A stretch of 64,000 nucleotides of DNA from Macrostomum lignano (lineage: Eukaryota): positions 124,001 through 188,000 of the forward strand of contig NIVC01000255.1 of assembly GCA_002269645.1 (NCBI GenBank). Reading direction: 5' to 3'. Numbering within the stretch: position 1 is the stretch's first letter; every line of letters begins with the position of its first letter. A program made the translations under genes and the position numbers. The notes below the pieces were generated by a model. That model did no database searches and was not told where the DNA came from. It saw only the letters and a list, made by a program, of their open reading frames with translations. Positions 9,799 to 64,000 of the stretch are shown here, piece after piece.

Positions 9799-11580
9799 TC
9801 AGGAACAATGGACAGACATCGCTTTCCCGACATCTTCTTGTCTCAGTTGCTTCTCAGCCAGTCCGAAGCATCTCACGCAAAGGCCCGGGTTCTTATCGAA
9901 GTAGCTGTACCCGTATCCAATCTGCAGCTGTTGACGTCCGAGTTCAAACGGCGAGTCGAACTTCTCAGAGTAGCGCTTGCTTGCAGGGGACTCGCCATTG
10001 ATGCTAGAGCTCAAAACTTGGTCTTTCATTGTCAGTGTGATGTCGCAAGGAGATCCACGGCACTGGTGAGCATCGTACACGTGGCGGTTAAAATAGATAA
10101 ACGAGTGCGTGGCATTTCCAGGCACCATCGTGTTCACTTCAAGGACAAATGCGCCTGTCGAATTGTGCCAGAAGCCATGAACAAGGTATGGATAGTGACT
10201 CGGCCTGTCCGACAGAACAGAGAAAAAGTTCATTCGGTTCTTATTGGCTTGCTGCAGCCTGAAGTACATAGTCCATTCTCCAGTTGAGAAAACAGATTTT
10301 GCGTAGGATGTGAACCCTCCGACACCGAAATATTCCTGGTAGATGCTACCATTCATCTTAAAGCAGGCCCCGGCCTCTGCCGACCTCTCCACGCCGAACT
10401 GGTCCTCGATGGCGAATGCGCGCGGGTCCACCAGGTTGTCGAGGCCTCTTCTGAAGTCGAACGCAGCCACGAGGCCGTCCACAGGTGGAGTGACGCCTCC
10501 TTCAGGTGCAGAGGTGACGCCTCCGTCAGGTGTGGAGGTGACGCCTCCGTCATGTGTGAAGGTGACGCCTCCGTCATGTGTGGAGGTGACGCCTCCGTCA
10601 GGTGCAGAGGTGACGCCTCCGTCAGGTGTGGAGGTCCCGTCCGACGCCTCCGTCTTGCACACGAACCTGTGCCTGCTGTGGCACCTGTCGCTGCGCAGTC
10701 GACCAGCTGACAGCGTGACGCAGTTCACAGTCCAGTCCGCACTGTCCGGGTGTCCAGTCTCCCATGCGGGCAGCTTGTTGTCGTGTTTCCCTGAGAAATC
10801 CGTCCACTGGTAGCAGAGCTCGCGACCCGCACTGTCAGGGAAGCAGGGGTTCAGCTTGATGAGGCCGAGCCACACCGAGTCGAGCAGCTCTGCCGACTCG
10901 CAGCTGTCGATTCCGAAGCTGAGCTTGTTCACAAAGTCCAGCTCAGACTGGGTGAGCACCGACGCCAGCTGCGACCAGTTTCGCTGGCAGTAGAAGTTGG
11001 CCTCGTTGAAGTTGGCCTCAAACTGCGGCATCACGTAGCACTGCTCGTCGTGCAGCCACCAGCCGCTGGGACATCGGCCCTTCGACCGCCACCACAAGTC
11101 GACGAGACTGCTGGAGTTGGCGCTCAACTTGCACACAAACGGGTGCCGCTCGTGATACAGTGAGTTGAGCCACCACTCACCGTCACTTCGGATCAAAGGC
11201 TTGTGAACGCTGTCCAGCTGAGAGAAGTTGTGTCTCTCGAAGCTCCCTACGCCGCCGCCGTCCGTCCACCTGTAGCTTGTAGGGTCGGCCAGACGGTCGA
11301 GGTCGGTGCCGAACAAACCGATCCAGGCGTCTCTGCAGTGAGACAGTCGGCCTACCAGTCGGTTCTCTTGCTCACTTTGGATGGACGCGAGCTGAGCCCG
11401 GTGAGACAGACACGTCTGCTCGGCCTGAAACCAGTAGTTCGGCTCGCTGAACCACTTGTAGCATGAGTGAGCTCGGTGTGTCCAGCCGTGTCCGGGACAC
11501 TGAGCAGAGGCGGCGCCGGTGAGCAGCAGAGCTGCAGTGGCTGCGGCGAGGCAGGCAGCGAGTAGCTGGCGGTGCTGCAT
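9799..11580 (-). CDS. Secreted C-type lectin: signal peptide, two CTLDs, Thr/Gly repeat linker, C-terminal LamG-like domain (593 aa from ATG 11580)
   Basis: Single long ORF. Hydrophobic leader; CTLD motifs CPGHGW..SCY, WIGL, FVCK and CPSGW..QCY, WLGL, NCV..C...FVCK; linker TS(T/A)(P/H)DGGV x6; then LVAAFDF...WTMYFRL resembling LamG. Confidence 0.9.
   Translation of the reverse strand: MQHRQLLAACLAAATAALLLTGAASAQCPGHGWTHRAHSCYKWFSEPNYWFQAEQTCLSHRAQLASIQSEQENRLVGRLSHCRDAWIGLFGTDLDRLADPTSYRWTDGGGVGSFERHNFSQLDSVHKPLIRSDGEWWLNSLYHERHPFVCKLSANSSSLVDLWWRSKGRCPSGWWLHDEQCYVMPQFEANFNEANFYCQRNWSQLASVLTQSELDFVNKLSFGIDSCESAELLDSVWLGLIKLNPCFPDSAGRELCYQWTDFSGKHDNKLPAWETGHPDSADWTVNCVTLSAGRLRSDRCHSRHRFVCKTEASDGTSTPDGGVTSAPDGGVTSTHDGGVTFTHDGGVTSTPDGGVTSAPEGGVTPPVDGLVAAFDFRRGLDNLVDPRAFAIEDQFGVERSAEAGACFKMNGSIYQEYFGVGGFTSYAKSVFSTGEWTMYFRLQQANKNRMNFFSVLSDRPSHYPYLVHGFWHNSTGAFVLEVNTMVPGNATHSFIYFNRHVYDAHQCRGSPCDITLTMKDQVLSSSINGESPASKRYSEKFDSPFELGRQQLQIGYGYSYFDKNPGLCVRCFGLAEKQLRQEDVGKAMSVHCS
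10476..10640 (-). repeat. Coding 24-bp tandem repeat (TSxxDGGV linker)
   Basis: Six full units and one partial in frame; absent from the paralogue at 62867. Confidence 0.9.
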
Positions 11581-13290
11581 TTGCTGAGTCGGCAATGGGA
11601 GTCGCTGATTGGAGCGGCCACTTTGAGTTGCAGATTTGAGCAGACATTGCGAGTCGGCATTTATCCACTCGAGCTGCTGCTGGAATGTGTGAAAGGCGTG
11701 GAATCTCGCCAGATTGAGTGGCGCGGCCTCAGCTGAGGCTCTGCTGCAGTTGCAGGTCTGATGTGGCTGTCCGAGTCACGTCTCACCGTGGAGCTGCGAT
11801 CGTGACAGCAGCCGAGTTGCTGAGGCCCCGAGAGGAGTGAGGGCTCAGAGCCGCAGCATTGTGATACTCAGCTTTGTTTGAGACAGGCGCAGCTGTCAGT
11901 TAGCGAGATATGAAGTCCGTCCGTGTGCACATGTCGATTAGTCGCTGCGGATCGCTCATGCTGGCTGATCTCACAAGCATTGGCACAGGCGTGTGTTACA
12001 GATTTCGGATTAAAGCTACTACCAGGGAAGACGCAACGAAATTCCTTTTATAAAGATTTACACTGATTTAGTGTATTGTGCATAGATTACGAGTGCAATT
12101 GGATAGTCGCTTTACTCACTGGTAACATTTTACTAGTCGTATGCATGGAAATTGAAGGTGTCTTAAAGTTTGCTGTTTCAGATGATACGGATGATACATA
12201 CATGTACATGTAAAATAACCGCATTTACTCGATCCGTAGCATTGCATGCAGGCTCCAAGAGAACATTTAAACGGGTGGGGGCCGCACAAAGCCAAGATTT
12301 CAGTTCCCAGTCGTTAAACAATAATATATCCCTGTAAGTAGTGTTAAAATAGTCTCATAGTTTCGCGGGTTACGTGTACGTTTAACCATCTGCAGCTGAC
12401 ACACTAGCTTGTGGCATCTCTCCATCAGCTTGCTGATTCTGTTAGTAAATAATAATTCTGTCGGGGTCCTTTGTATCCACGGCTTAATTCAAGACAGAAA
12501 AGGCTGAGCTGCAGTTGCATTTTCATACGCCAGCTATTGGTAAAATATAATTGGTTTTATCTTTAGGAACAGTACCCATGGCAATTTCGGCGAATAGGGT
12601 AGTACTGTATATACGGCACCAGCCTGAATTTCAAGTGCCCAACAGTAGTTTTAAATAGAGCTGTGATGCTTGTGCCATATAGATTTTATTTTGATCTGAT
12701 GTCCATCGTGTCAAAGTCGAACGAAACGGTTTCATTTTATTTAAAGCACACAGTGGGAAAGTGTACCTAATATTAAAAAGTGCTTTTTAAAGTTTTTCAA
12801 AATTGTTCTTTGTTAATGTCGCGACAAATCAAGAATATTTGTTGAAATTTTATTGTTTACGTGGCACTTTTTTAACGTAATTAATTTATCTAAATTTCTA
12901 TAGAGCTTGTTAACATGCTTGATGAGTATTGATCACTAAGTAGTTCAGGTATTTTGACACAGAATCGACCTTTACTTTACTGCTTTACTGTATTATTTAC
13001 ATTTTTAAAGTTTAAGCGAAGTTTGCGTGCTTTGACATCTTTTGGTGAAAAATTGTGATCTAGAGAAGTTTTTTGCTTAATGTCCTACTGTCCTGGCCCT
13101 GGCTATAATTTAGGCCTTTAATTAAGCTATACCTAAAGGCTATGACTTTGCCAGTAAATTAAGAATCACTACCTCTTTGAATTTTGACGCACGAAAATAG
13201 ATTTTAAAGTAAATGTCTCTTGTGGATGCGAAACCTAATGTTCTATCTTATTTTGTACTGTACATAAATAAACCATAAAAGAAAACTAAA

Positions 13291-39300: not shown

Positions 39301-42300
39301 ATACAGACTTACAGGCAAATTTTACAGACTGACAGCCAGATTATACAGACTGACAGGCAGATTACACAGACTGACAGGCAGATTATACAGACTTACAGGC
39401 AAATTTTACAGACTGACAGCCAGATTATACAGACTGACAGGCAGAATATACAGACTAACAGGCAGATTTTACAGACTGACAGGCAGATTACACAGACTGA
39501 CAGGCAGATTATACAGACTGACAGGCAGATTATACAGACTAACAGGCAGATTTTACAGACTGACAGTTAGAATATACAGACTTACAGGTGCTGTGCTGAC
39601 CACTTGGTGTAAAACAGGCTGACAGGTAAGGCATACAGACTGACAGGTGAGTGTGAAACAGACTAACTCCAATTCTAAGAAAGACAGGATGCAGATTAAA
39701 GAATCATCAAAAGTTTGTTCAGTGCGTCTTTTTGAAAATTGATTTAAAACGGGAGATTTCAATCAATAATGTGCTGCCCAGACTCGATAAGTTTGGTTGG
39801 GAAGATGAAGCCATTTTATATTCTCGTCACTGACGAGGCATTCAGTTCACTTTTTTAAACTCATTATATCCAATTTAAACCCTAATAACCCTTGTACTTC
39901 TTGAAATCTAGTTTAGATAGTAATTTTTCTGTTTTGCATTTTGCACGCCTTCATTAGCCTACTTTTAGCGGCAGTTTTAGTAAATTGCTGCTATTTTTCT
40001 TGCATGAACCTGTCATTGTTTAGCTGAAGTGAGTCTCTTACCTTAGTTGTTGTGTTGATGTTGTCAACTTTATTTTTGTGTCTTTTAAAGTGCATGAAGT
40101 TCTTTGCTTGAAGGGATTTGAAGACTGACTGTGCTGGGATCTGAGGACTGGCTGAGCTGGGATCTGAGGACTGGCTGAGCTGGGATCTGAGGACTGGCTG
40201 AGCTGGGATCTGAGGACTGGCTGAGCTGGGATCTGAGGACTGGCTGAGCTGGGATCTGAGGACTGGCTGAGCTGGGATCTGAGGACTGGCTGAGCTGGGA
40301 TCTGAGGACTGACTGTGCTGGGATCTGAGGACTTAGGATCTGATGACTGGCTAAGCTGGGACCTGAGGACTGGCTGAGCTGGGATCTGAGGACGGGCTGA
40401 GCTGGGATCTGAGGACTGGCTGAGCTGGGATCTGAGGACTGTCTGAGCTGGGATCTGAGGACTGTCTGAGCTGGGATCTGAGGACTGGCTGAGCTGGGAT
40501 CTGAGGACGGGCTGAGCGGGGACCTGAGGACTGGCTGAGCTGGGATCTGAGGACGGGCTGAGCTGGGATCTGAGGACGGGCTGAGCGGGGACCTGAGGAC
40601 TGGCTGAGCTGGGATCTGAGGACTGTCTGAGCTGGGATCTGAGGACTGTCTGAGCTGGGATCTGAGGACTGGCTGAGCTGGGATCTGAGGACTGTCTGAG
40701 CTGGGATCTGAGAACTGGGGATCTGAGGACTTAGGATCTGAGGACTTGGGATCTGAGGACTGGCTGAGCTGGGATCTGAGGACTGTCTGAGCTGGGATCT
40801 GAGGACTTGGGATCTGAGCACGCAACCGGCCCCATCATGTCCCCAGGACCTCATCTCGGAGACTGGCATCACGTATCAGATTGTGTCCAGCATTCCCCCA
40901 GCAACTGGGGAAGTGGAGGACCGGAAGTCCCTGGCAGTGCTGGCCGCAGCCTCATCAGACGCCATCAGCTCCCTGGCAGGCCCGGCAGAGGACTCAAGCA
41001 GCTGCTCACTGCTGGCCGAGTCCTCCGCCATCAGCGACTCCAAACTGACTGACGGAAATTCCGCCGCTCCCGCCGCTCCCGGGTCAGCCGCCTCATCAAA
41101 CGGAAGCTGGAGACCAGCTCAGCCGGACAGTGAGACCTACATCAAGCAGTACCTGAGCGCAGTGTCGGCTGTTGATTACTTCCTTCGCGAGGAGAAGGCC
41201 AGGCAGGAGGCTGCGGTGAAGTTCTCGAAGAATGCAAAAACCAGAGCGACCAGAAAGTCCATGCAGGTCATGGGCGCGGACGGTGGGGTGAGTTGCGGCT
41301 GTGTGGGTTTCTGTGCGATAGTGGCCGTTTAGAGTAGGATAAACTGTTTATGGACTGTTTATATCATAAGAGTAGTAGGAAAGTGGTACCCTCTACCGCC
41401 ATCGCACCGGATTGGCCGGGGCACCCGGCCAATGAGGAGAGACGGCGCCCCCAAAAACGCCCACCCCGACGCCAAACCCACCCCGACCCCCAAACCCACC
41501 CCGACCCAAACCCACCACCGCCACGCACCCAATCCCGACCCCCAAACCCACCCCGACCCCGGCCAAACCCACCACCGCCACGCACCCACCCCGACCCCAA
41601 ACCGGGCCCCCAAAGACGCCCACCCGACCCCAAACCCACCACCGCCGCACCTACCTCCGACCCCAAACCGGGCCCCCTCCTGTCCTGCACCCCATCCCAT
41701 ACCAAGGCCCCTTCCTGTCCAGCACACCATCCCATACCGGAGGCCGGAGAAGGGGGTCGGGCAAGCCCAGGTTGGGGTCGGGCAAGCCGGTCGGGCAAGC
41801 CGGTCGAGCAGGCCAGATGAGGGGTTGGGCAGCTGAGTGTCTGGGTGAGTGTCCAAGGGTGAGTTAAGTGAGTGTTCAAGGGTGAGTTTTGAGATGTGAA
41901 TGAGTGTCCATAGTTGAGTATCCTCTACCGCATGTGGTGATACGCAAGACAGAGTTTCAATGTGATCTTAACGGGTAGAGGGTCTGATTGCTTGGAATTT
42001 CCGAGTAGAGAGGGGAAGGGATTCTATTGGTCGAGCAAGCATTTGAAGTGATTTCCGAGTAAAATGTGGAGAATGGATTCTATTGGTCGAGAGGTCCCTG
42101 ATGAACGATTTGGTTTGGACCCTGCGGGAGAAGGGCTCCAGTACCCTTTATAAATAAAGCACCTCGGCCCCATAGATTTTTTATTTATTTTAGATTAAAT
42201 TAAAAATACAACGAAAATGCAAATAACTTGCGACTTTTGCGAGTCATCAGTAATCGGGGGCATTGAGGAGCACTATGCGGTATGTCCTGCGATACCAGCA

Positions 42301-45300
42301 CTGTTTGAGTCAGATGACTCCCCAGCGATTCATTTTCAACTGATCAAGGAGGCGTTTAATGGCAGGTCCCAACTTTACCGGGCCAGTGCATGCGGCGACC
42401 CGATGAATGTTTTGGAAAACACTCGTCAAGCTTTCATTGACTTGATCACCCAGCATCAACGTGAGCCAGGAACCGCCATCAAAGTTCAGCTGCGCCTCGG
42501 GGTCCTGATGCAGCGCATCATTAATGGTAGCTGCGCCGCCGAGAACACTGCCTGGTTTGCTGCCAAGGTCCACTCTCTTCTCCAGAGTGAGGAGGAGTAC
42601 TACTTCTCTAACGACATGCAGACTATCATCAACCGGATAGAGAAGTAACTACGCAATGGCAGTGGCTGGGTAATCAGGACCACTCGGTGTGTTGACGTGT
42701 CAACCGCAAGTTATTATCTACCGCATAGAGCGTCGTGCAAAAGGCCAAGAATGAGTTCAAGAAAGACTGCAACAAGCTGCTAAACAACTCCCTGTAGACC
42801 ATCGAGTATGTTCGCAAGCAAGTGGACTACGTGCTGGTTTATTCAGCAGGGAAGCCTGTGGCCAAGCCGACGTTCCGCGATCAGATGATTTTCAACGGGG
42901 ATTTAGCTCTAGTGCACATTCTCAAGACGAATGTTGTGCTCGACAGGCTAGTGTATATCGGCCAGTGCGATCTGTCTGGACACTAGCAAGCTCTTTTTCC
43001 CACAAATTTTTTTTCTTTGTAAATATCTGATTTAAAACAACTATATGCATGTAAATTTAATACGAACATACTATATTTTGAATAATAATAAATACAAGCT
43101 TTACTCTATGATATCTAATACGCAGAAATAGAGAAAAATGCTCTTTCACAAAAATATTTTTGCTATAATTAGTCATTTTTTGAGCACAGCTCTGGGGTAA
43201 AATCCCCATTGAAATGTATGTATTTTATCCACAAGTATGCAAGTTTTCGTCCAGTGATTAAAAGTATGCAATACGGCGTGAATTTTTCGACAAAATGCGT
43301 CAATTTTCATGCACAGGTTCGGGTACAAATCCCTATTGAAATACATGTATTTTGTGCACAAGTATGCAAGTTTTCGTGCACAGTGTTAAAAAGTATGCAA
43401 AGTGTTGAGGTTTTTTGTGCACACATTCGGGTAAAAATTCCCATTGAAATGTATGTATTTTGTGCAAACATGCATGCTTTTTCGTGCACAACAGAGGCTA
43501 GAAACGCTAAATCCGCAGAAACTGGTGGGGGTGGGCAGTTATTTTTTTTTTCAAGCAGGTGTTTGGCATAAGAAAATGATAGGTACTAGAAATTTGGTAA
43601 AATGAAAAAGAAAAAGGCAATTTCAAACCTTCTGCCAGGTATTTATTTTGACTGCAGTAGACCGGGCAGCTATGGCGGCTATCAGGCATTAAAACGAGAG
43701 TTGCACAAACATCACGGACCCAAGTTTAGTGTAGGGCAGGTATGTATATACGATATACTTCTAAACCAATGATTTTTTAGAAAATTCCAGCTTAGGTTTT
43801 TAGTTTTATCCACTAGCTAGCAATTTCCAGTTTTTACAATTAAAGGTAAAAACGTGGCTCCAAGACCAAGATGTCTACACACTGCATAGAGATAAACGCA
43901 AAAACTTTCGTCGAGCACCGATTGTGGTGCGGGGCATGGATGACCAGTGGGAACTGGACCTGGTTGAAATGCTACCGTTTGCCAAGTACAATGGCGGCGT
44001 ACGATATATTTTATGCTGCATTGATGTGCTCAGCAAGTTTGCCTGGGCTCAGCCGGTGCGCCGCAAGACAGCCGAGGAGGTTGCAGCCGGATTCGAAGCG
44101 ATCCTAAATCGAGCTCACCCTCGATGCCCACGAGCAGTTCGGACCGACCGTGGAAAAGAGTTTTGTAACACCCAGTTCCGAGCCCTCTGCGTAAACCACA
44201 AAATTCATGCATTCACATCAAGTAGTGACCAGAAATGCGCAGTCATTGAGAGATGGAACCGCACACTGAAATCCCGAATGTGGCGGTACTTCCGTCACAA
44301 GTCAACATTAACCTGGACCGATGTGCTTCAACCCTTAGCAAAGGCATACAACCAGAGTATTCATCGGAGTATTCAAAGCCGACCAGTTGATGTCGACAAG
44401 TCAAACGAGATGGAAATTTGGCACCGGCTTTACGATGGGAAGCTTCCTGAGACTCGTGAAAAGGTCTCCAGACCAAAGTTCAAGGCAGGAATGATGGTGC
44501 GAATCTCTCTTCGCAATCTGGCCAACCCATTCACCAAGGGATACACAAGGGGATGGAGTGAGGAAGTATTTGAAGTCAAGTCCCTCCACCCCAAGCATTA
44601 TCCATACATGTACACTCTGATCGATGCCCGAGGTGAAGAGTTGGAAGGCAAGTTTTACGAGCCGGAAATGCAGCAAGTGACAGGAAACAAGAAGCTGTGG
44701 ATCATCGACAAGGTTCTCAACATTAAGAAGCTGAAGAGTGGAAAGATTCGGTATTTGGTTCAGTGGCGCGATTCAGAAAAACCCAGTTGGATTGACGAAA
44801 AAGACTTAAGAAAAATATGAAAAGGCAAAGATTTCAGGTAATGTCCGGCCCCGATGATGACCCGGCCAACTTTACTGCTGAGCTGCTGCATCCTGTGCTG
44901 CTGGATTCTGCTTTGGACTATGAGTTGGGTCTGCTTGGAATCAGTTTTATCAACTGCATCTACACGATCCCTCATCCATTGTCGCTATATTATCAGCTTG
45001 AGGGTTCAATGCAATGTGCTGAAATTCCAGCTGGGCGCTACAATGACTTGAATGAGCTGATTGATGCAGTAAATGCTTTACTGATTGTAAAAGATTTTGA
45101 TGAGTCTGGAATTGGCGAAACACCTATAAATGTGCATCTAATTAAATTTACCCTTGATTCAGTTAGCCATTATGTATACTATCAAATGGCTGGGATCTGT
45201 GAGAGATTTGTTTCCAGAAAACAGCCAGATGGGGAAAATCTTTGGTGCTGCGCAGACAACCTATAGCGAGCAGGCAGGATGCTTTGAACGACCTGGCATG

Positions 45301-48300
45301 AACCCGGCCTGGAATACGGATTTGCTGCTTGTTGAGTGCGATCAGATTAGCCCGCGCTGTATTGGAAATCAGTTTACTCCAGCACTGCAGACTTTGAATA
45401 TTGGTGGTCTTTTGCAGGATCACCGGTCGGAACTCATCTATAAGAATAAGCTGTTCTTCCCAATAGCAGCAAACCACCGCTTAACACACATGCAAATACG
45501 GCTACGACCGATCAACTGTATCGAATCTATCCGATTACTCTTTGGACCCACAGTCTTGACTTTTGAGCTGCGTGAGTCATGGACATTCGACAAGTGACCG
45601 AGTTTTATCGAGGCAGTTGCTTCAAACTTCCTCATGGGCACGGATATCCCACATCGCTGCTATCTCGACTGCCCCCTGAGACTCATGAAAATGCAGTTCT
45701 CCTTTCCCGCATACCACCTCCATCGCAGAAAAAACATAAGAAAACGCCAAAAATCAAACCAAAGAAGAGCAAGCCAGTGCCCACAAAAAAGCGCAAGATA
45801 CCGTTAAAAACAGTCAACCGAGTGCTCGATTCACTCTCATAATGTATCGGACAAATCCACGGCTCAATCTGTTTGAGCCAATGACGCATGAAATTGGAGT
45901 GGATAGGTCTCACTTCACGGACTTTCATCCCATCGGCAGTCTCACGACTCCTGATGCACCGATTGAATTCGACTGCCACGCCTCCTCTGAGGACTACACC
46001 GATCTGCACGCCACAGTGCTGCAAGTCACTTGCCGGATAACTCGTGTGATAAACAATGCAGAGCTGACTAATGAAGATGATGCCCATGTCGGACTATCGA
46101 ATCTCCCGCTTGCCAGCCTGTTTCGTGATGTCACTGTAAAACTCAACCAGCGGGTTGTGAGTGGTGGGGACGAGCTCTACCCATATCGAGCAATGCTTCA
46201 AGTGCTGACCAGCAGCACTGCCAACCAGCTTCAAAACTGGCGGCCGCAGGTTATTATCCAGACACCGCTGGAGAGAGTGACACCATTGGGGAGCAAAATC
46301 ATGGATTCACAAATCGTGCGAGATTGCATGAGGCTTCTGCTGTTGTGCAATATGCCGGCCCGTTGTTTTCAGACATTTTCTCAATCCGGCAGTATCTGCT
46401 AAACCAAATCAGCCTGCAGGTCAAATTGACCCGGCACTGCAGCGCTTTTTCGTTGATGGTACCCAATAATGTAGTTCAATACCGTGTTGAAGTCGACAAT
46501 GCTATTCTGCTTTTGAGGCGTCTCCGAGTAAACCCAACAGTGGCTCTCGCACATGAACAGGGGCTCTCACAGCGTAATGCTCTACCACTTTGATAGAAGA
46601 GAGCTTCAGACATTCACATTTTCTGTTGGGACAAGAAACAAGAGTCTCGATTCAATCACGCATGGTCAGCTGCCAAAATTTGTGCTCCTTGGAATGGTCA
46701 GCCAGACAGCTTTCAATGGATCTCTGCACCACAACCCGTTTTGGTTCCAAGCTGGTTCCAATCACTGGATTGCTGGAGTAGTAACAAGTAAAGTGCATTG
46801 TGAAATTTTCAACTCTTTGGGAGGCTTGAGTAAAAATATGAAGAGCTGGTTAAAGAAAACTAAACCGACGCGGATGGTGCTGCAATGGAATACGGTCCCT
46901 GTTCAGCCCAGTTCGTCAACTCTATGCGGCTGGTATTGCATTTTTTACTTGATCCATCGACTACATAAGAGAATGTCATATAATGCCTTGTTCATCAAGG
47001 TTTTGCACCCGGCAGCTGTGGCTCAAAACGATGCAATCATACTCAGACTAAAAAATCAGTTGCAAGGTGTTTGATTCCTTGATGTTTGATGATGTTTGAT
47101 GATGGTTTCGGGCCCTTCTCGAGCGGGAAAATCAACATTCTGTTTGCGGTTGCTGTCCCAACGACTGCTTCTGTTCGACCAACCTCCCAAGCGGATGATT
47201 TGGTATCACGGATGCCCGCAGCCGGAACTCCACGCGACTCTGCGGCGGCTAGGAGTGCAAGTATGTGAAGGATTATCGAATTTGGATCTGCAGCCCCATG
47301 ACCTGATTGTGATTGACGATTTACTGGATGAAGCAGCTGCAAGTCGAGAGCTACGACATCTGTTCACCCGTGAGGCCCACCACAAGCCCTGCTTTGTCAT
47401 TCTCATCACGCAAAATCTATTTTTCAAAGGCAGAGAGTGGCGCACAATTAGCATAAATTGCACCTACATTGTGTTGTTCAACAACCCCAGAGACGCCTCT
47501 GCGGTCCAAGCTTTAAGTCAGCAATGCTTTCCCAAACGGCGCACTCTGCTAGTAGAACTGATGGATCGATTGGTGCGAGATGGAGATCAGCGCTATCTGC
47601 TGCTTGATTTTCACCCCGCTTCGCCCCATGAACTGCGCCTGAGAGCCAATTTTCTCCCCGATGAGGCCCCGCAGCGAGTTTATCTATAAGAATGGCTCAG
47701 TATCTGCACTGAGTTAAACATGGATAAACACATTGCAGTAATAACTGTCTTTTGTGAGGGCACTATATCCTTGCATCGCTGCATACTTACCTATGCAAAT
47801 AAAAGCACCATTTGCTTTTTGGTTGAGTGTATTATAAATCTACTAGCAGGAAAAGTTTGTTGTGAAGATAGCTTGAAGCGGAGACTCAGGCGATATCGAA
47901 ATACTCTCCGGCTTGTTGCACAAAGCAAAAGTGTGAAAGAGGCTCGGCGCAATCTCTCACACCCGCATATCCTTCGTTGTCTTCCTCTGATTCTCACCTG
48001 TATAAAAAGACATGTACAAGGAAATGATACTGGTACCCCGGTTGCAGTATGAGGCACTTGTGAATCAGAGGGGCATGGAGACAGTCTGTGAACCCGAGCT
48101 AGAGGCGGAAAAACAGTTGCGCAAGATTAGGGACGAGCGTTGCGTGCAGCAGCTGCAGGCAAGTGCGACCCAAGAACAGCCTCCAGTAATTCACAAAGAA
48201 CCGCAGTGGAAGGAGGTTTTATATCTGACGGTGAATCAGAAATGGCATCATCGTCTGCAGGCATTGATTAGCTTCATAACCGTAAAGTGCAAGTCGATTA

Positions 48301-51300
48301 GCATAGATGATACGTATGAAGTTTCTGTCAATGGTAAACCGTTGTACAACTCAAATATCGTGGACCTGCTGCATTTCATAGTTAAAGATACGTACTCTAA
48401 GTACCTTCAGCCACCGAATGGGATTAATGAGTTTGTTACGTGTCTTCAAGAAAACCACGTGCCTCTGTCTGCAGTTGGTCTGAACACTACAAAATTGCTG
48501 GAAAAGCCTCGGGAAGAAAAGTCCAGTCCTAAAAAACCTCGACTGCAAGGCTATAAGAAGACTCAGTCTCAGAAAGGATACGGCAAGTGGATCAAGTGGC
48601 CAAGATGATTGTCATTGATTTTGAAGGATTTCCGCACCTCTACAAAACAGAGGACTTTGTGATTAAGGAAATTGCATGGGTTGAGTTTGCATGCGGTCAA
48701 ACGACGGCTCATTACTATTGCTACCGACCGCCGCACAGCTTTGAGCTCTTTGATCGAGGACAGCGACGAACCTGCTACTGGCTCACCAATAAGCGGCACG
48801 GTCTAGACTGGGACAGGAGTGGGTTCCGACCCTACTCTTGTCTCTGGAGCGATATCTCCACTTGCAAGGCCCGATATTCAGCAAGGGGGATGTCAAGTGC
48901 CAGTTCCTGTCGCGTCTGCTGCTACAGCCTGTCTACGACCTCGCACACCTGGCCTTTCCGAGTGCCTCGAAGTACGTGCTACCCTGCGCCCTGGCCAAGG
49001 TGGCGCTGTACGCTGATTGGCTGCGGCCTCGCGGCTACGGGTCTATAAAAGTAGCGATCTGCAGCAGGCACTGGCATTTCTCTCGATTGTCTAAAGATGG
49101 CCGCAACAATTCGCGTAACAAACATCGTGACAGGAGCCGACCTGGCGACCCGGGTGGCTCTGCCACAACTAGCGAATTTCCTGACTCTTCATCTGCCTCA
49201 GTATCACACAATCCGCCATCGCCTGGTTCATCCTCGAACACTGGCTGTGGTGATGAAGAGCGGGCAGCATCGAGTAACCGCGCTGGTGTATCCGACCGGG
49301 CAAGTGTCTGTCTGTGGAGCCAAAAGCATGGAGGAAGCTCTCGCAGAGACAGAGAAGATTGTGAAGCTGTGTGCGGACTTCTTGCGATTGACCAGTCTGC
49401 CCCAGATTCGCATCAAGACTATTACCTCTGTGACGACCTTTCCCGCGGGTCGGCATCCACTCCGGTTGGGGGAAGTCAAGTCTAAATGGCCCGATCGGGC
49501 CACCTACGAGCCGGAAATGTTTAACGGACTTGTGCTCGAGTTTACTGCCTCTGTAAAGTTGATTTTGTTTCATTCATATCGCTGTATAATAGCTGGTGCT
49601 CGCAGCGTGGTTGAGGCTCAGACTGCAGCTGATGCCCTCTCCCGCATTTTGCATGCAGACCAAGCATCCGAACCTACTTTGCTGGACTCTGACTGAGCTC
49701 CTCTACGGCATAACAGTAGTAGTGAGATCTGCCTATGCACTGAGTAATAATAATAATAATAATAATAATATTTTTCCTATAACTTTACTTCTGTATTTTT
49801 TGTGTACAAAAGATAAGAAAAAATAAACGCGAATGCAACTATGTTTGTGCAACAATGCTTACAAAAATGAAACGTTTTTTTTGTTTATTTTATTGGCAGG
49901 TCCATGGATTGCAAAGCATAAAATTACATGTTAAAAGCTCCTATTAGCACAAAAAAGTTTATGAAGAATGGAAGGGCCGTATTAAGGCCCGTCACGTGTA
50001 TTTACAAAGCAGGTATTATCGCAAGAAATTAAAGCATCATGGGGCAATATTATAGCCAGTATTGACAAAGCAGTATATACAACAGTACATGATCAGTACT
50101 ATGGTTCAAAACTATATTTAAAAAAAAGTTACTTGACGAAATGACCAGTTGTCGCTTCATGCATTGCGCGTCGCTTCATTGGTGGCTGGTGGCATGAAGG
50201 CTGTTGGTTCTTCTCAGCTGTTGATGGCTCTTCCAGAGTTTCGGATGCAAATCTCTTTCTAAATTCAGCCTGAACTGCCTGGAAAGCCTCCCAGTGGTCG
50301 TCCCACTCTGCCGGCTGCCTGTCAGGTACTTGTATAAGTTGGTCGAGTGTAAGCCTTGCTGCCCATGCTGCACACTCTTCAGGCTCCGTAGGGTGGTATC
50401 CCATCCACCATGGATCGCCGATCGGTGGCTTGACCGGAGGTTCTCGCTTGTCAATTTTGTCTAGGACCCAATGCTTTTGAGCCCAGACTTCGCGCCAAAG
50501 TTTTGTAGGAAGCGGTAAGGCGTGCCTTAGGTGCACCGGCGGTCCGAGTACAGTTGGAAGGCGCCAGAGTGTGATTACGCCATTTTGCACAACCACTTGC
50601 CTGTTGCCACCCAGAAGGCATTGCGCATCGATACACTTTCTTGCAAACTCTTCCAGTCGTTCCTTCAGGCTGCCCAAGTGGCAAAACTGGTGGACGGTGA
50701 GCTCCATGCCAGGCAGACCTGGTCGATACTCTTCATCAAATTTGTACCACTTTCTGATGCTGATGCACTTCGAGTGCGACCTGACGCCGATTCGAAATCT
50801 GTTCGATAATGTCTTGAAGTTCATTTTGTTCACTGTGAGCTTTCCTTCCGGCTGTGTGCGAGATTATATACGACGAGAGTTGGTAAGTAACACCAGCTCC
50901 CGCTCCATAGCAATAACCAATCCGAACCCCGAATCCAACCCCACACAACAGCCCTCTCGCAGGAACTCTCGGCAAATCAGGAGCCCTTCCGGGGACCACT
51001 CAGCCATTTAGAAACCAGCTCCTGTTCCATAGCAATAACTAATCCGAACCCCAAATCCAACCCCCACACAGCAGCCCTTTCGCAGGAACTCAGGCCTTAA
51101 CAAAGTCTCAGTCATCAACGTAACAGGAGGTGACGGGACCTTCTTGCGGCCCTCTGGCCGCCAAGAAGTAGCGTTCTAGGTCTAACGACCTCACGCTGTA
51201 CCCGCCACAGCAAGATAGAGTACAACCAAAGCATGGAATGAGGGTTTTGCCTTGGCTAGCTTTAAAGGCGGTAAGTGAGACAGGTAATAAGACTAGGTTT

Positions 51301-54300
51301 AGGAATTAGGAGGGGGGGAATTGGTTTTGGTTAGAGTACAGGATAGAAGGACCTTGCTATATGGGATGGAGCAAGGCGCAGGATAGGAGGGGCCTTGGTA
51401 TGGGATGCATGGGGTGCAGGACAGGAGGGGGTCTTGGTATGGGATGCACGGGGTGCAGGACAGGAGGGGTGTAGGACAGGAGGGGGTCTTGGTATGGGAT
51501 GCATGGGGTGCAGGACAGGAGGGGGTCTTGGTATGGGATGCACGGGGTGCAGGACAGGAGGGGGTCTTGGTATGGGATGCACGGGGTGCAGGACAGGAGG
51601 GGTGTAGGACAGGAGGGGGTCTTGGTATGGGATGCATGGGGTGCAGGACAGGAGGGGGTCTTGGTATGGGATGCACGGGGTGCAGGACAGGAGGGGTCTT
51701 GGTATGGGATGCACGGGGTGCAGGACAGGAGGGGGTCTTGGTATGGGATGTACGGGGTGCAGGACAGGAGGGGTGTAGGACAGGAGGGGGCCTGGTTTGG
51801 GGTCGGGGGTGGGTGCGTGGGTTTGGGGTCGGGATTGGGTGCGTGGCGGTGGTGGGTTTGGGGTCGGGGTGGGTTTGGGGGTCGGGGTGGGTTTGGCGTC
51901 GGGGTGGGCGTCTTCGGGGCGCCCTCTCCCCTCATTGGCCGGGTGCCCCGGCCAATCCCGTGTGATGGCGGTAGAGGGTACCACTTTCCTACTACTCATA
52001 AGATAAACAGTTTATATTATGATAGCCAAGCCAGGGTTTTCACCATAAGACAAGTTAATAAGTTTTTAAGAAGCTAAGGTATTCGTAAGTAAAATTTCCC
52101 CTGTATATTAAAAACGGTCTTAAAATGTTTTACTTGGCTACTCATCGCAGTCAGTCAGTAGCTAATATCGAACATTATTTCGCTACGCCAAATTTCAGCA
52201 AATGATTCGATCCGTATCGCTTGGCTCGCTGAGTCTGCTCAAATTGAATGAGCCCGGCTATCTTGCCGGTGGTCAGGCAGCCTCTGTCGCCGCGGCCGCT
52301 GGCGGGCCGCCGGTCCCCCCGCAGCAGCAGCAGCCGCAGCAGCAGCCCAGCGCTTCTGTGCAGAACCTGCACGCCGCACTGCGCCGAGCTGAACCGCCAA
52401 GCGCTCTGATTGGCCCAGTTGGCAGTAAGTGTGCGAGCCTGTGCGTGCGTGCCTGCGGTCACGGGTTCGAATTCGGGATCTGTGCGCTGCTTGGGGAACC
52501 ATGTGTACCCTCTACTGTCCCCCCTGTACCCTCTCCTGTCCCCTCTGTACCCTCTACCGTCCCCCTGTACCCCCTCCTGTCCCCTCTGTACCCTCTGCTT
52601 TCCCCTCTGTACCCTACCCTGTCCCCTCTGTACCCTACCCTGTCCCCTCTGTACTCTCCCCTGTCCCCTCTGTACCCTACCCTGTCTCCTCTGTACCCTC
52701 TCCTGTCCCCTCTGTACCCTCTCCTGTCCTCTCTGTACCCTCCCCTGTCCCCTCTGTATTCTTCCATGTCCCTTCTGTACCCTCTGCTTTCCCCTCTGTA
52801 CCCTCTGCTGTCCCCTCTGTACCCTACCCTGTCCCCTCTGTACCCTACCCTGTGCCCTCTGTACCCTACCCTGTCCCTCTGTACTCTCCCCTGTCCCCTC
52901 TGTACCCTCTGCTGTCCCCTCTGTACCCTACCCTGTCCCCTCTGTACTCTCCCCTGTCCACTCTGTACCCTACCCTGTCCCCTCTGTACCCTCTCCTGTC
53001 CCCTCTGTACCCTCTCCTGTCCCCTCTGTACCCTCTCCTGTCCCCTCTGTACCCTCTGCTTTCCCCTTTGTACCCTCCCCTGCCCCCTCAACCGTTCACC
53101 TGTAGCAGCAGTTCTAAATCTGAAGCTTAATCTGCTGTCTGCTTTTAGAACACCCGGAGCCTCTTGAAGGTATTGCATAAATTTTCCATTTTCCATTTAA
53201 GTAATTTAAGTTTTATATAATCTGTTTTACTAGATATTGTTAATCTTGAACAAGTACGCTGTTTTACCAACCCGAGCAGTTTTTAAATATTCTTTCGAAC
53301 AGTTACTCATAAATATTAAATATTAAAAATCACAGTGTTCTTCAGCATGAGGTTGCGGTGCTGCAGAAGTTCCTGTCCTGTTTCATAAATTGCAACTTTT
53401 ACTTTTTTTTTCTGCATACGATTGCAGTGAGGGCAGCTGCTCCTCTTCTCTCATCTCCCCTCTCTCATCTCTCCTCTCTCATCTCTCATCTCTCATCTCT
53501 CATCTCCCCTCTCTCATCTCCCCTCTCTCATCTCTCCTCTCTCATCTCTCATCTCTCATCTCTCATCTCCCCTCTCTCATCTCCCCTCTCTCATCTCTCA
53601 TCTCTCATCTCTCATCTCTCATCTCTCATCCCTCATCTCCCCTCTCTCATCTCTACTCTCTCATCTCTCATCTCTCATCTCTCCTCTCTCATCTCTCCTC
53701 TCTCATCTCCTCTCTCTCATCTCTCATCTCTCATCTCTCATCTCCCCTCTCTCATCTCCCCTCTCTCATCTCTCATCTCTCATCTCTCATCTCTCATCTC
53801 TCATCCCTCATCTCCCCTCTCTCATCTCCCCTCTCTCATCTCTCATCTCTCATCTCTCCTCTCTCATCTCTCCTCTCTCATCTCCTCTCTCTCATCTCTC
53901 CTCTCTCATCTCTCAACTCCCCTCTCTCATCTCTCATCTCTCCTCTCATCTCTCCTCTCTAATCTCTCATCTCGCCTTTCTCATCTCTCCTCTCTTCTCT
54001 CTCTTCTCCCAACTTCCTCCTGATCACTTTTGTCTTATCTCCCCATCCTTTCTGTTTTCTCTTTTCTCTTTGAGCGTTGTCTTTGAGCTTTTACCAAATT
54101 CTTACCTACCAGCAATGCCTTAAAAATCGCCATTTTCATATTAATAACAATATCATGACAAGAAATCTTGTCCTGCCAATCTGTTTGCAGGCAGCCGCCC
54201 CAACTTTCTTAACTTGAACACGCAAAAGATTAGAAAGTACTGGCCAATAGGTAAATATTTGAATCGGCGCCAGAAATTCAGTTAATCAGCTGACGGAGTC

Positions 54301-62495: not shown

Positions 62496-62866
62496 TACTT
62501 GTACAGCCGACTTTCCAGAAAGGCACAATTATCTGCGTGAATGCATATTTGAGTTGCTTTTTTGGCTCGTTAATTGTTGATTTTATTTAATAAATGCCAG
62601 TAAAAAAGTGCAGCAAGCTTCAAGCCCTCTTTATTCCTTAGAGCTGAGATTGAATTTTGCATCAATTCTGCGCAAACATTTACCCCTGATTCAAATGATA
62701 AAGCAAAAACTGAGAAAATTTTCTTCTCTCAGAGCTGCTTCTGCGCAATTGCGTTTGTTTAGCCACCTGTCTGCTCGAGTGGATAAATGCTGACTCGCGA
62801 TGCCTGCTCAAATTCGCAACTCAAAGTGGCCGCTCCAATCAGCGACTCCCATTGGCGACTCAGCAA

Positions 62867-64000
62867 ATGCAGCACCGCCAGCTACTCGCTGCCTGCCTCA
62901 CCGCAGCCACTGCAGCTCTGCTGCTCACCGGCGCCGCCTCTGCTCAGTGTCCCGGACACGGCTGGACACACCGAGCTCACTCATGCTACAAGTGGTTCAG
63001 CGAGCCGAACTACTGGTTTCAGGCCGAGCAGACGTGTCTGTCTCACCGGGCTCAGCTCGCGTCCATCCAAAGTGAGCAAGAGAACCGACTGGTAGGTCGA
63101 CTGTCTCACTGCAGAGACGCCTGGATCGGTTTGTTCGGCACCGACCTCGACCGTCTGGCCGACCCTACAAGCTACAGGTGGACGGACGGCGTAGGCGGCG
63201 TAGGGAGCTTCGAGAGACACAACTTCTCTCAGCTGGACAGCGTTCACAAGCCTCTGATCCGAAGTGACGGTGAGTGGTGGCTCAACTCACTGTATCACGA
63301 GCGGCACCCGTTTGTGTGCAAGTTGAGCGCCAACTCCAGCAGTCTCGTCGACTTGTGGTGGCGGTCGAAGGGCCGATGTCCCAGCGGCTGGTGGCTGCAC
63401 GACGAGCAGTGCTACGTGATGCCGCAGTTTGAGGCCAACTTCAACGAGGCCAACTTCTACTGCCAGCGAAACTCGTCGCAGCTGGCGTCGGTGCTCACCC
63501 AGTCTGAGCTGGACTTTGTGAACAAGCTCAGCTTCGGAATCGACAGCTGCGAGTCGGCAGAGCTGCTCGACTCGGTGTGGCTCGGCCTCATCAAGCTAAA
63601 CCCCTGCTTCCCTGACAGTGCGGGTCGCGAGCTCTGCTACCAGTGGACGGATTTCTCAGGGAAACACGACAACAAGCTGCCCGCATGGGAGACTGGACAC
63701 CCGGACAGTGCGGACTGGACTGTGAACTGCGTCACGCTGTCAGCTGGTCGACTGCGCAGTGACAGGTGCCACAGCAGGCACAGGTTCGTGTGCAAGACGG
63801 AGGCGTCGGACGGCATTGTGGCTGCGTTCGACTTCAGGAGGGGCCTCGACAACCTGGTGGACCCGCGCACCTTCGCCATTGAGGACCAGTTCGGCGTGAA
63901 GAGGTCGGCAGAGGACGGGGCCTGCTTCAAGCAGAATTCAAGTGCCAGTTATGGGGAGCTCTACAATGTCGGAGCTCCCGTGGCATTCAATGAGTCGATC
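62867..64000 (+). CDS. Second C-type lectin (two CTLDs plus LamG-like), inverted paralogue of 9799-11580; runs off the window
   Basis: ATG CAG CAC CGC at 62867; the frame stays open to 64000 (hence absent from the ORF track); near-identical to copy 1 through both CTLDs, lacks the repeat linker, and diverges after GACFK (about 63931). Confidence 0.9.
   Translation, partial: MQHRQLLAACLTAATAALLLTGAASAQCPGHGWTHRAHSCYKWFSEPNYWFQAEQTCLSHRAQLASIQSEQENRLVGRLSHCRDAWIGLFGTDLDRLADPTSYRWTDGVGGVGSFERHNFSQLDSVHKPLIRSDGEWWLNSLYHERHPFVCKLSANSSSLVDLWWRSKGRCPSGWWLHDEQCYVMPQFEANFNEANFYCQRNSSQLASVLTQSELDFVNKLSFGIDSCESAELLDSVWLGLIKLNPCFPDSAGRELCYQWTDFSGKHDNKLPAWETGHPDSADWTVNCVTLSAGRLRSDRCHSRHRFVCKTEASDGIVAAFDFRRGLDNLVDPRTFAIEDQFGVKRSAEDGACFKQNSSASYGELYNVGAPVAFNESI

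Follow-up and report, generated by a model that had tools for sequence, protein, structure and literature searches.

The window analysed here, a stretch of 64,000 nucleotides from Macrostomum lignano, carries a decayed Maverick/Polinton element with genes for a TBP-like and a PC4-like protein. We consider it slightly better than an even chance that the element has a late promoter of its own, read by its TBP, and that PC4 serves replication. This reading starts from direct observations (predicted folds, gene orders, the enrichment and position of a promoter-like motif, its co-distribution with TBP across families and purifying selection on the TBP gene) and is extended by analogy with herpesviruses. 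The full picture is held more tentatively, at somewhat less than an even chance: the elements would run an early-late programme without an RNA polymerase of their own, using a private TBP on a clade-specific box with G at position 6 and co-evolving specificity residues, a tandem PC4 as single-strand binding protein (SSB), and a dead DEDD protein with a selected, overprinted tail of 110-130 codons.

Organization of the element

The element spans 41371..51996 (10,626 bp, no strand assigned) and is a Maverick. Its ends are of the AGT type (AGTAGTAG...CTACTACT), its terminal inverted repeats (TIRs) of about 190 bp are 94% identical, with internal repeats besides, and it is flanked by a 6-bp target duplication, CATAAG, at 41365-41370 and 51997-52002. 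Remnants of the protein-primed DNA polymerase lie at 42217..42986 (+ strand), most of the gene being deleted, with TATAAA at 42149, 68 nt 5' of the ATG; a sister element gives a family B polymerase match (PF03175, E 1.4e-12). The retroviral-like integrase with a chromo-like tail (43602..44820, +; rve, E 1.7e-13) contains an apparent GT-AG intron at 43740-43845 (106 nt, phase 0), predicted from the sequence. The central block (44817..48608, +) comprises the minor capsid gene, a small basic ORF, the major capsid, protease and packaging ATPase genes, and ORFs of 110 and 198 aa, and several of its genes are broken or partly deleted in this copy. AAA matches are found in the window, and a Peptidase_C5 match (E 7.2e-5) in a sister element. 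The capsid labels are without Pfam match and follow from homology to sister elements, position and general features of the Maverick family.

Near its right boundary, at 51996, the element has a cluster of three accessory genes: a gene with a predicted DEDD/RNase-T fold (48605..49485, +), the TBP-like gene (49097..49696, +; 199 aa, intact) and the PC4-like gene (50129..50824, -; 231 aa, intact). The cluster had been described in an earlier note on this DNA, and its layout is as claimed there, apart from two corrections to the DEDD-like gene given below. The TBP-like and PC4-like genes converge on an AT-rich spacer (49697..50128, no strand assigned) with AATAAA on both strands, at 49822 (+) and at 49894 and 49889 (-), and each has a TATA-like box: the canonical TATAAAAG (49044..49051, +) lies 53 nt 5' of the TBP-like ATG, and a canonical TATATAA (50864..50870, -), adjoining the right terminal repeat, lies 46 nt 5' of the PC4-like ATG.

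The TBP-like protein and a G-containing TATA variant

The TBP-like protein matches Pfam TBP (E 8.4e-20), and its predicted model (pLDDT 86) shows the two-repeat saddle fold of the TBP family, matched by Foldseek to yeast TBP (PDB 1tbp) with E 2.8e-13 and TM 0.69/0.75. An in-genome search yielded 150 scored TBP-like matches in two clades. In a quick tree, the TBPs of clade I (the window family) and clade II form a branch of their own, separate from host TBP and TRF2 (SH-aLRT 99), and that of clade III sits on a long branch; a recent capture of host TBP is not favoured by this tree. The gene is under purifying selection, with dN/dS about 0.15-0.25 in the part that overlaps the DEDD-like gene and about 0.14 or saturated past the overlap.

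In yeast numbering, the window protein keeps the equivalents of N69, E186, E188, F190 and F207 and carries the substitutions F99 to P, F116 to Y, N159 to T and P191 to N. E186 and E188 belong to the acidic stirrup that contacts TFIIB, which is kept in clades I and II. A canonical TATA reader has four intercalating phenylalanines and two asparagines, a set that is incomplete in the element TBP. Because F99 and N159 are lost and F116 is a tyrosine, the binding of the protein to DNA may be weak or absent. Some of the residue roles are described in the available text of PMC12529657, according to which KSHV ORF24 cannot do without any of its four phenylalanines.

Motif discovery upstream of the element genes across copies, as the earlier note had suggested, revealed a G-containing TATA variant before most central-block genes. 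PC4 has a canonical TATA upstream in both clade I and clade II, as has the clade I polymerase, whereas the central genes are preceded by a sense-strand TATA with G at position 6, in the form of TAAGAA in the window, CTTAAGAA in clade II and TATAAGC in clade III. The search was unbiased, k-mers being ranked by count with no prior motif. TAAGAA is the top 6-mer of the window block (seven sense and no antisense copies vs 1.2 expected), and the same counts, vs 1.2-1.4 expected, are found in four of four clade I blocks. The seven sites in the window, at 43569, 44724, 44807, 45441, 45737, 47687 and 48554 (+; span 43567..48559), are candidate late promoter boxes, each located 10-138 nt 5' of a central-block start codon. 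All seven lie no more than 140 nt before a start codon, in upstream windows that together make up 20% of the block, with P about 1e-5 for a window length chosen after the fact.

In clade II, CTTAAGAA is the top 8-mer in all three blocks ranked; it occurs 5-6 times in eight full blocks (0.1-0.2 expected) and twice in one incomplete block. Motif-to-start distances match between clades I and II, both for the major capsid gene (105 vs 109 nt) and for the DEDD-like gene (51 vs 46 nt). Upstream of the protease and the 198/230-aa genes the exact motif was not found. A forward test in clade III gave TATAAGC in five of five blocks, with 4-6 copies vs 0.24-0.38 expected, and no such signal was seen in one Maverick family that is TBP-less within the sensitivity of the HMM. 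Across these three clades and one control family, all of them related, the variant motif tracks with the presence of TBP and is absent from the TBP-less family. Among six metagenome TBP-Maverick loci, one has TAAGAGG (6 copies vs 0.25 expected), L149 has a canonical-type box as judged by eye, and four show no clear motif. Contigs of four read runs cover the genes, the spacer and the terminal repeat flatly and without joints, and are uninformative on expression.

The start of the box varies between clades, and so does one TBP residue. The proline equivalent to P191 favours T at box position 1, as stated in the accessible part of PMC12529657. In clade III this proline is kept in six of six proteins and the box starts with TA in 24 of 47 sites; in clade II it is lost and the box starts with CT in 17 of 27 sites; in the window the residue is N and the picture is mixed. 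This is suggestive of co-variation between the P191 residue and the box start, as judged from the sequences of three related clades.

The motif could instead be read by a host factor (TBP, TRF2 or an initiator-binding factor) or by the polymerase of a helper virus, with the element TBP acting as a decoy or repressor by tying up TFIIB or other partners of TBP. We regard this as unlikely, though it would suit a protein in which half of the DNA-intercalating residues are changed and the TFIIB stirrup is kept, in a host whose genome carries both TBP and TRF2 genes; one clade III copy (C4948) also has the variant motif with no TBP gene within the span covered. The motif core resembles TAAG, the core of baculovirus late promoters, but the TAAG 4-mer as a signal of that type is not enriched (13 vs 17.6 expected), and the signal is rather a clade-specific 7-8-mer that appears to co-vary with a TBP specificity residue. 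Moreover, the integrase gene, which is preceded by the motif, has a putative GT-AG intron and therefore points to nuclear RNA polymerase II, and 53 kb of host flank contains no CTTAAGAA, though only 0.6 copies would be expected there.

Gene order, PC4 and the DEDD-like gene

In four of four window-family regions the polymerase and integrase genes lead rightward through the central genes to the DEDD-like and TBP genes, which PC4 faces from the other strand, and PC4 is convergent on TBP in 30 of 30 window-family loci. In 10 of 12 clade II regions (the other two are without one end) PC4 takes the left position before the integrase, and the polymerase faces the DEDD-like and TBP genes from the right, with TBP opposed to the polymerase and about 7 kb away from PC4. 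Polymerase and PC4 thus occupy the two ends and read inward, with the central block inverted from one clade to the other. The convergence of TBP and PC4 in the window family is a consequence of this inversion relative to the sister clade.

A polymerase search of the genome led to 13 further regions. Four of these, TIR-bounded and 8.8-10.1 kb long, hold a PC4-like gene without TBP, and gave no capsid, ATPase or integrase match. Seven (two capsid-less and five others) showed neither TBP nor PC4, so that polymerases of this kind do not all need PC4. In one region there is a distant TBP-like gene of clade III (hhalign 84%, E 7e-6). In seven of seven TBP-bearing clade III regions, which were picked by their TBP-like gene and three of which are TIR-bounded, there is no PC4 or DEDD match. 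A left-arm gene of clade III was considered as a hidden PC4 and rejected by sequence comparison (hhalign probability 0.2%, no Pfam family). Among 80 metagenome loci with a short TBP, 14 carry Maverick genes; a tandem PC4 lies directly 3' of TBP in three of the 14 and a DEDD-like gene in one. Searches of viral contigs with the TBP, PC4, DEDD and short-TBP alignments, and of metagenome contigs with the close TBP alignment, gave no related loci. A search of the elements for a TFIIB-like gene, with a host TFIIB exon as query, gave a best E of 0.12. In summary, TBP and PC4 are often found on one element and in some cases side by side, each also occurs alone, and PC4 follows the polymerase.

The identity of the PC4-like protein holds up in profile searches. 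The window copy by itself stays below the 25-bit cut-off of PF02229 (23 bits, E 5.8e-5), but 10 of 10 aligned relatives match PC4, and the profile finds the human PC4 C-terminal domain (CTD) with E 1.6e-7 to 1e-6. Two PC4 repeats (residues about 2-62 and 67-123) are followed by a helical region and a basic tail. The predicted model is a single-chain tandem fold with two beta4-alpha repeats, as in type I PC4-like proteins, with Pur-alpha as best match (Z 10.4, rmsd 4.0, 118 residues aligned); the first repeat alone fits the human PC4 CTD with an rmsd of 1.3-2.3 A over about 64 residues. Both sequence and predicted fold thus indicate the ssDNA-binding domain of PC4/Sub1. In coactivators of the PC4/Sub1 type a single PC4 repeat is preceded by an N-terminal regulatory region, and coactivator function needs this region. 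The element protein has no N-terminal extension, its first PC4 domain beginning at residue 2. A PC4 homologue of phage T5 is a precedent for a role in replication, according to the available part of PMC7549692. From sequence, model and co-inheritance with the polymerase gene, we consider the protein likely to be a single-strand binder in replication and not a partner of TBP.

The earlier note had favoured a minimal viral pre-initiation module formed jointly by the TBP-like and PC4-like proteins, with PC4 as SSB for replication as its alternative, and here the alternative fits better, PC4 being co-inherited with the polymerase gene. PC4 is a known Pol II cofactor, clades I and II have both genes, and the two are convergent throughout the window-family loci and tandem neighbours in the three metagenome loci, all of which would suit a module. 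The survey of co-occurrence within the genome nevertheless makes it quite improbable: the layout differs from clade to clade and is convergent only in the family of the window, each gene is found without the other (PC4 in four elements, TBP in the seven clade III regions), an outcome that the note itself had named as refuting, PC4 stays with the polymerase in capsid-less elements, and the PC4-like protein begins at its ssDNA-binding domain. Of the promoter switching that was also proposed, the part concerning TBP is supported by motif enrichment, motif position and the clade III test, and this support does not extend to PC4. Marginally less probable still is that the motif is an RNA-level or coding by-product (termination, trans-splicing, a translation signal or stop-codon context) and TBP is otherwise employed, e.g. 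in binding the terminal repeats: the ATPase stop codon does lie inside one of the seven sites, and motif-to-ATG distances of 10-148 nt include one, 10 nt, too short for a TATA box of that ATG, but the remaining sites lie within upstream coding regions in differing frames, the clade II box (CTTAAGAAG) aligns exactly with the canonical TATAAAAG before the clade I TBP, and the canonical TATA boxes of the terminal genes stand at similar distances.

On the preferred reading, a private late promoter read by the element TBP and PC4 in replication, host TBP would in an early phase read the canonical TATA of the terminal genes, polymerase and PC4, and in the window family that of the TBP-like gene as well. 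The tandem PC4 would coat the strands displaced by the protein-primed polymerase. In the late phase, the element TBP would bind WTAAG(A/C)A boxes and recruit host TFIIB through its acidic stirrup, and host RNA polymerase II would then transcribe the late genes of the capsid block. Some clade II copies have only a variant box before the TBP gene, and this reading leaves the first expression of that gene unexplained.

The DEDD-like gene had been taken for a nuclease. A tentatively predicted RNase-T-like fold would agree with this, but the window copy is frameshifted near 48860, profile matches are lacking and catalytic residues are missing. Pfam, PHROGs and PDB sequence searches gave no match, no relatives were found among proteins of 30-160 aa, and the DEDD label is taken from the predicted fold. 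The Atlas model of a clade II homologue reaches TM 0.63-0.67 to RNase_T clusters, below the bar for naming a family, and TM 0.74-0.78 to unnamed arthropod and Preplasmiviricota proteins of 156-219 aa; a feature score of 0.88 to Maelstrom is a lead only. D5 is invariant, E7 is Q in four of five aligned rows and no third-motif Asp is seen, so that the four acidic residues of DEDD 3'-5' exonucleases are incomplete. As only the first Asp is invariant, nuclease activity is doubtful, and judging by these residues the gene product is likely not a nuclease.

Unbroken copies encode 293 aa, a domain of about 160 aa and a Ser/Gly-rich tail overprinted on TBP (TBP being in the +1 frame), and overlap the first 130 codons of TBP; there is therefore no DEDD end 5' of TBP. 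Among 30 window-family loci, the ORF is 293 aa long in nine and 250-279 aa in four, fused to TBP in four, broken earlier in 11 and absent in two. The in-frame fusions occur at differing points, and we read them as more probably indel noise than fusion by design. One public gene model is a DEDD-TBP fusion. In clade II the overlap is 107-111 codons in 10 of 11 loci and 68 in the other. The open frame over TBP is probably under selection: its length is unusual under synonymous nulls (P 0.004-0.028 or 0.0005-0.016 per sequence), and in columns where a silent change to T would create a stop codon, T is used in 0 of 18 in the overlap vs 14 of 17 past it. Against this, five of 26 control ORFs have a same-frame open run of at least 98 codons, fourfold divergence is equally low in the ATPase gene, and the N-terminal half of TBP is less diverged overall. 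Identity between clade II copies falls at TBP codon 110-120 in five of five pairs, a drop that marks not only where the overlap ends but also a point of exchange between the central block and the polymerase arm.

Relation to known systems

The element shares with Mavericks/Polintons and adintoviruses, as characterized in the accessible part of PMC8502044, the terminal repeats, 6-bp duplication, protein-primed polymerase, integrase, ATPase, protease and capsid genes. The novelty of our observations is limited, since a TBP label in MELD elements is already in print, in a figure legend of that paper (Starrett et al., 2021) and in its preprint, as far as these sources were available. The available main text of PMC8502044 mentions neither a function nor a promoter motif, nor a PC4 or DEDD gene, and its supplement has no match for PC4, TBP, Maelstrom, TATA or the host genus. 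In the openly accessible paper text that we searched, neither a late promoter motif nor a PC4 of Mavericks is described, and there is no relevant passage in the available parts of PMC11071308, 10.1101/2023.08.22.554363, PMC11131425, 10.64898/2026.10.13.758929, PMC11296320, PMC8097293 and PMC11662393. According to the abstract of PMC8097293, no virions of animal Mavericks were known.

The finding bears on how Mavericks time their capsid genes. If true, a private TBP with its late box would be a minimal counterpart, arisen by convergence, of the late-gene switch in herpesviruses and would argue that Mavericks of this lineage keep a regulated virus life cycle, and a PC4-type SSB would supply a component missing so far from protein-primed replication. 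The elements offer a motif to seek in start-site mapping, a single knock-down target and natural pairs of TBP and box for specificity rules.

Several cellular and viral proteins resemble those of the element. Cellular TBP and TRF2 (PF00352; PDB 1tbp, 1cdw) have the two-repeat saddle in common with the element TBP, which differs in its 23% identity to host TBP and in two of the four phenylalanines. Among PC4/Sub1, Pur-alpha, Whirly, MRP1/2 and phage T5 PC4 (available text of PMC7549692), human PC4 is matched in its CTD by the first repeat of the element protein; the latter would have two repeats per chain like Pur-alpha, whereas PC4 is a homodimer. The DEDD-like protein may resemble DEDD/RNase T proteins in its predicted fold, with Maelstrom as a lead only, and is set apart by its overprinted tail and by the first Asp as the only invariant one.

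The TBP mimics of beta- and gammaherpesviruses (EBV BcRF1, KSHV ORF24, HCMV UL87) likewise combine a viral TBP fold with a one-base TATA variant before structural genes, and the available parts of PMC4893493 and PMC12529657 describe a TATT late box vs the canonical TATA before early genes. The herpesvirus pre-initiation complex, a TBP mimic with five activators on a TATT box, has no equivalent in the element maps, which hold no room or match for such genes. We use this TBP-TATT switch as a working analogy only, and claim no homology. In contrast to KSHV ORF24, which needs five other viral activators and is without the TFIIB-contact glutamates, the element TBP is a stand-alone protein of 190-200 aa that keeps them, and the variant base would be a G at position 6 of the element box instead of the T at position 4 of the herpesvirus box.

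Probable arm exchange in clade II

In clade II, the sister Mavericks with an inverted central block, this block is near-identical within subclades, and the arms, which hold PC4 and the integrase on one side and the second half of TBP and the polymerase on the other, are strongly diverged. Judged from the sequences, the arms of these elements were probably swapped, with one boundary within the TBP gene at codon 110-120 (e.g. L050:6060-6090). A clade II copy with an internal deletion lies approximately 11 kb past the window (host genome G000, C255:199017-203851; L066); PC4, integrase and polymerase are retained in it and TBP is lost.

TBP and PC4 in other elements

As a control we used an AT-rich Maverick family (G000 C506:477216-494715; L086-L087), in which no TBP or PC4 matches were found and canonical TATAAA precedes several genes. 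Among metagenome Mavericks, TBP is followed directly by a DEDD-like gene in L149 (7175-8247), and by tandem PC4 in L191 (647-1806), L194 and L211.

In the left arm of clade III Mavericks, a conserved gene of 260-280 aa adjoins TBP (L133:730-1560, minus strand; homologues in L136, L139 and L140). A search for a family match to this gene found none; it is a candidate for the single-strand-binder slot. Clade III also carries deoxynucleoside kinase and dUTPase genes (L095:1949-2545, L119:7266-8132).

Capsid-less elements of 9-10 kb form a family with terminal repeats of ~1 kb. Its members encode a polymerase together with a PC4-like protein, and the search for an integrase gave no match in the four G000 regions (C491:285031-295129, L088-L090; C24:795199-803954, L097-L099; C173:199634-208632, L109-L111; C558:479035-488551, L115-L117).

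Host setting and integrase gene

The Maverick copy sits within a gene at window positions 17264-58990, which from its motifs we take to be a KIF13-like kinesin gene with a C-terminal CAP-Gly-like exon. Two inverted copies of one gene region, presumably C-type-lectin-like, occur ~51 kb apart (9799-11674 and 62773-63937; 98-99% identical). In the window's family, the integrase gene appears to contain a phase-0 spliceosomal intron of 106 nt with GT-AG ends (43740-43845); in clade II, integrase genes are uninterrupted.
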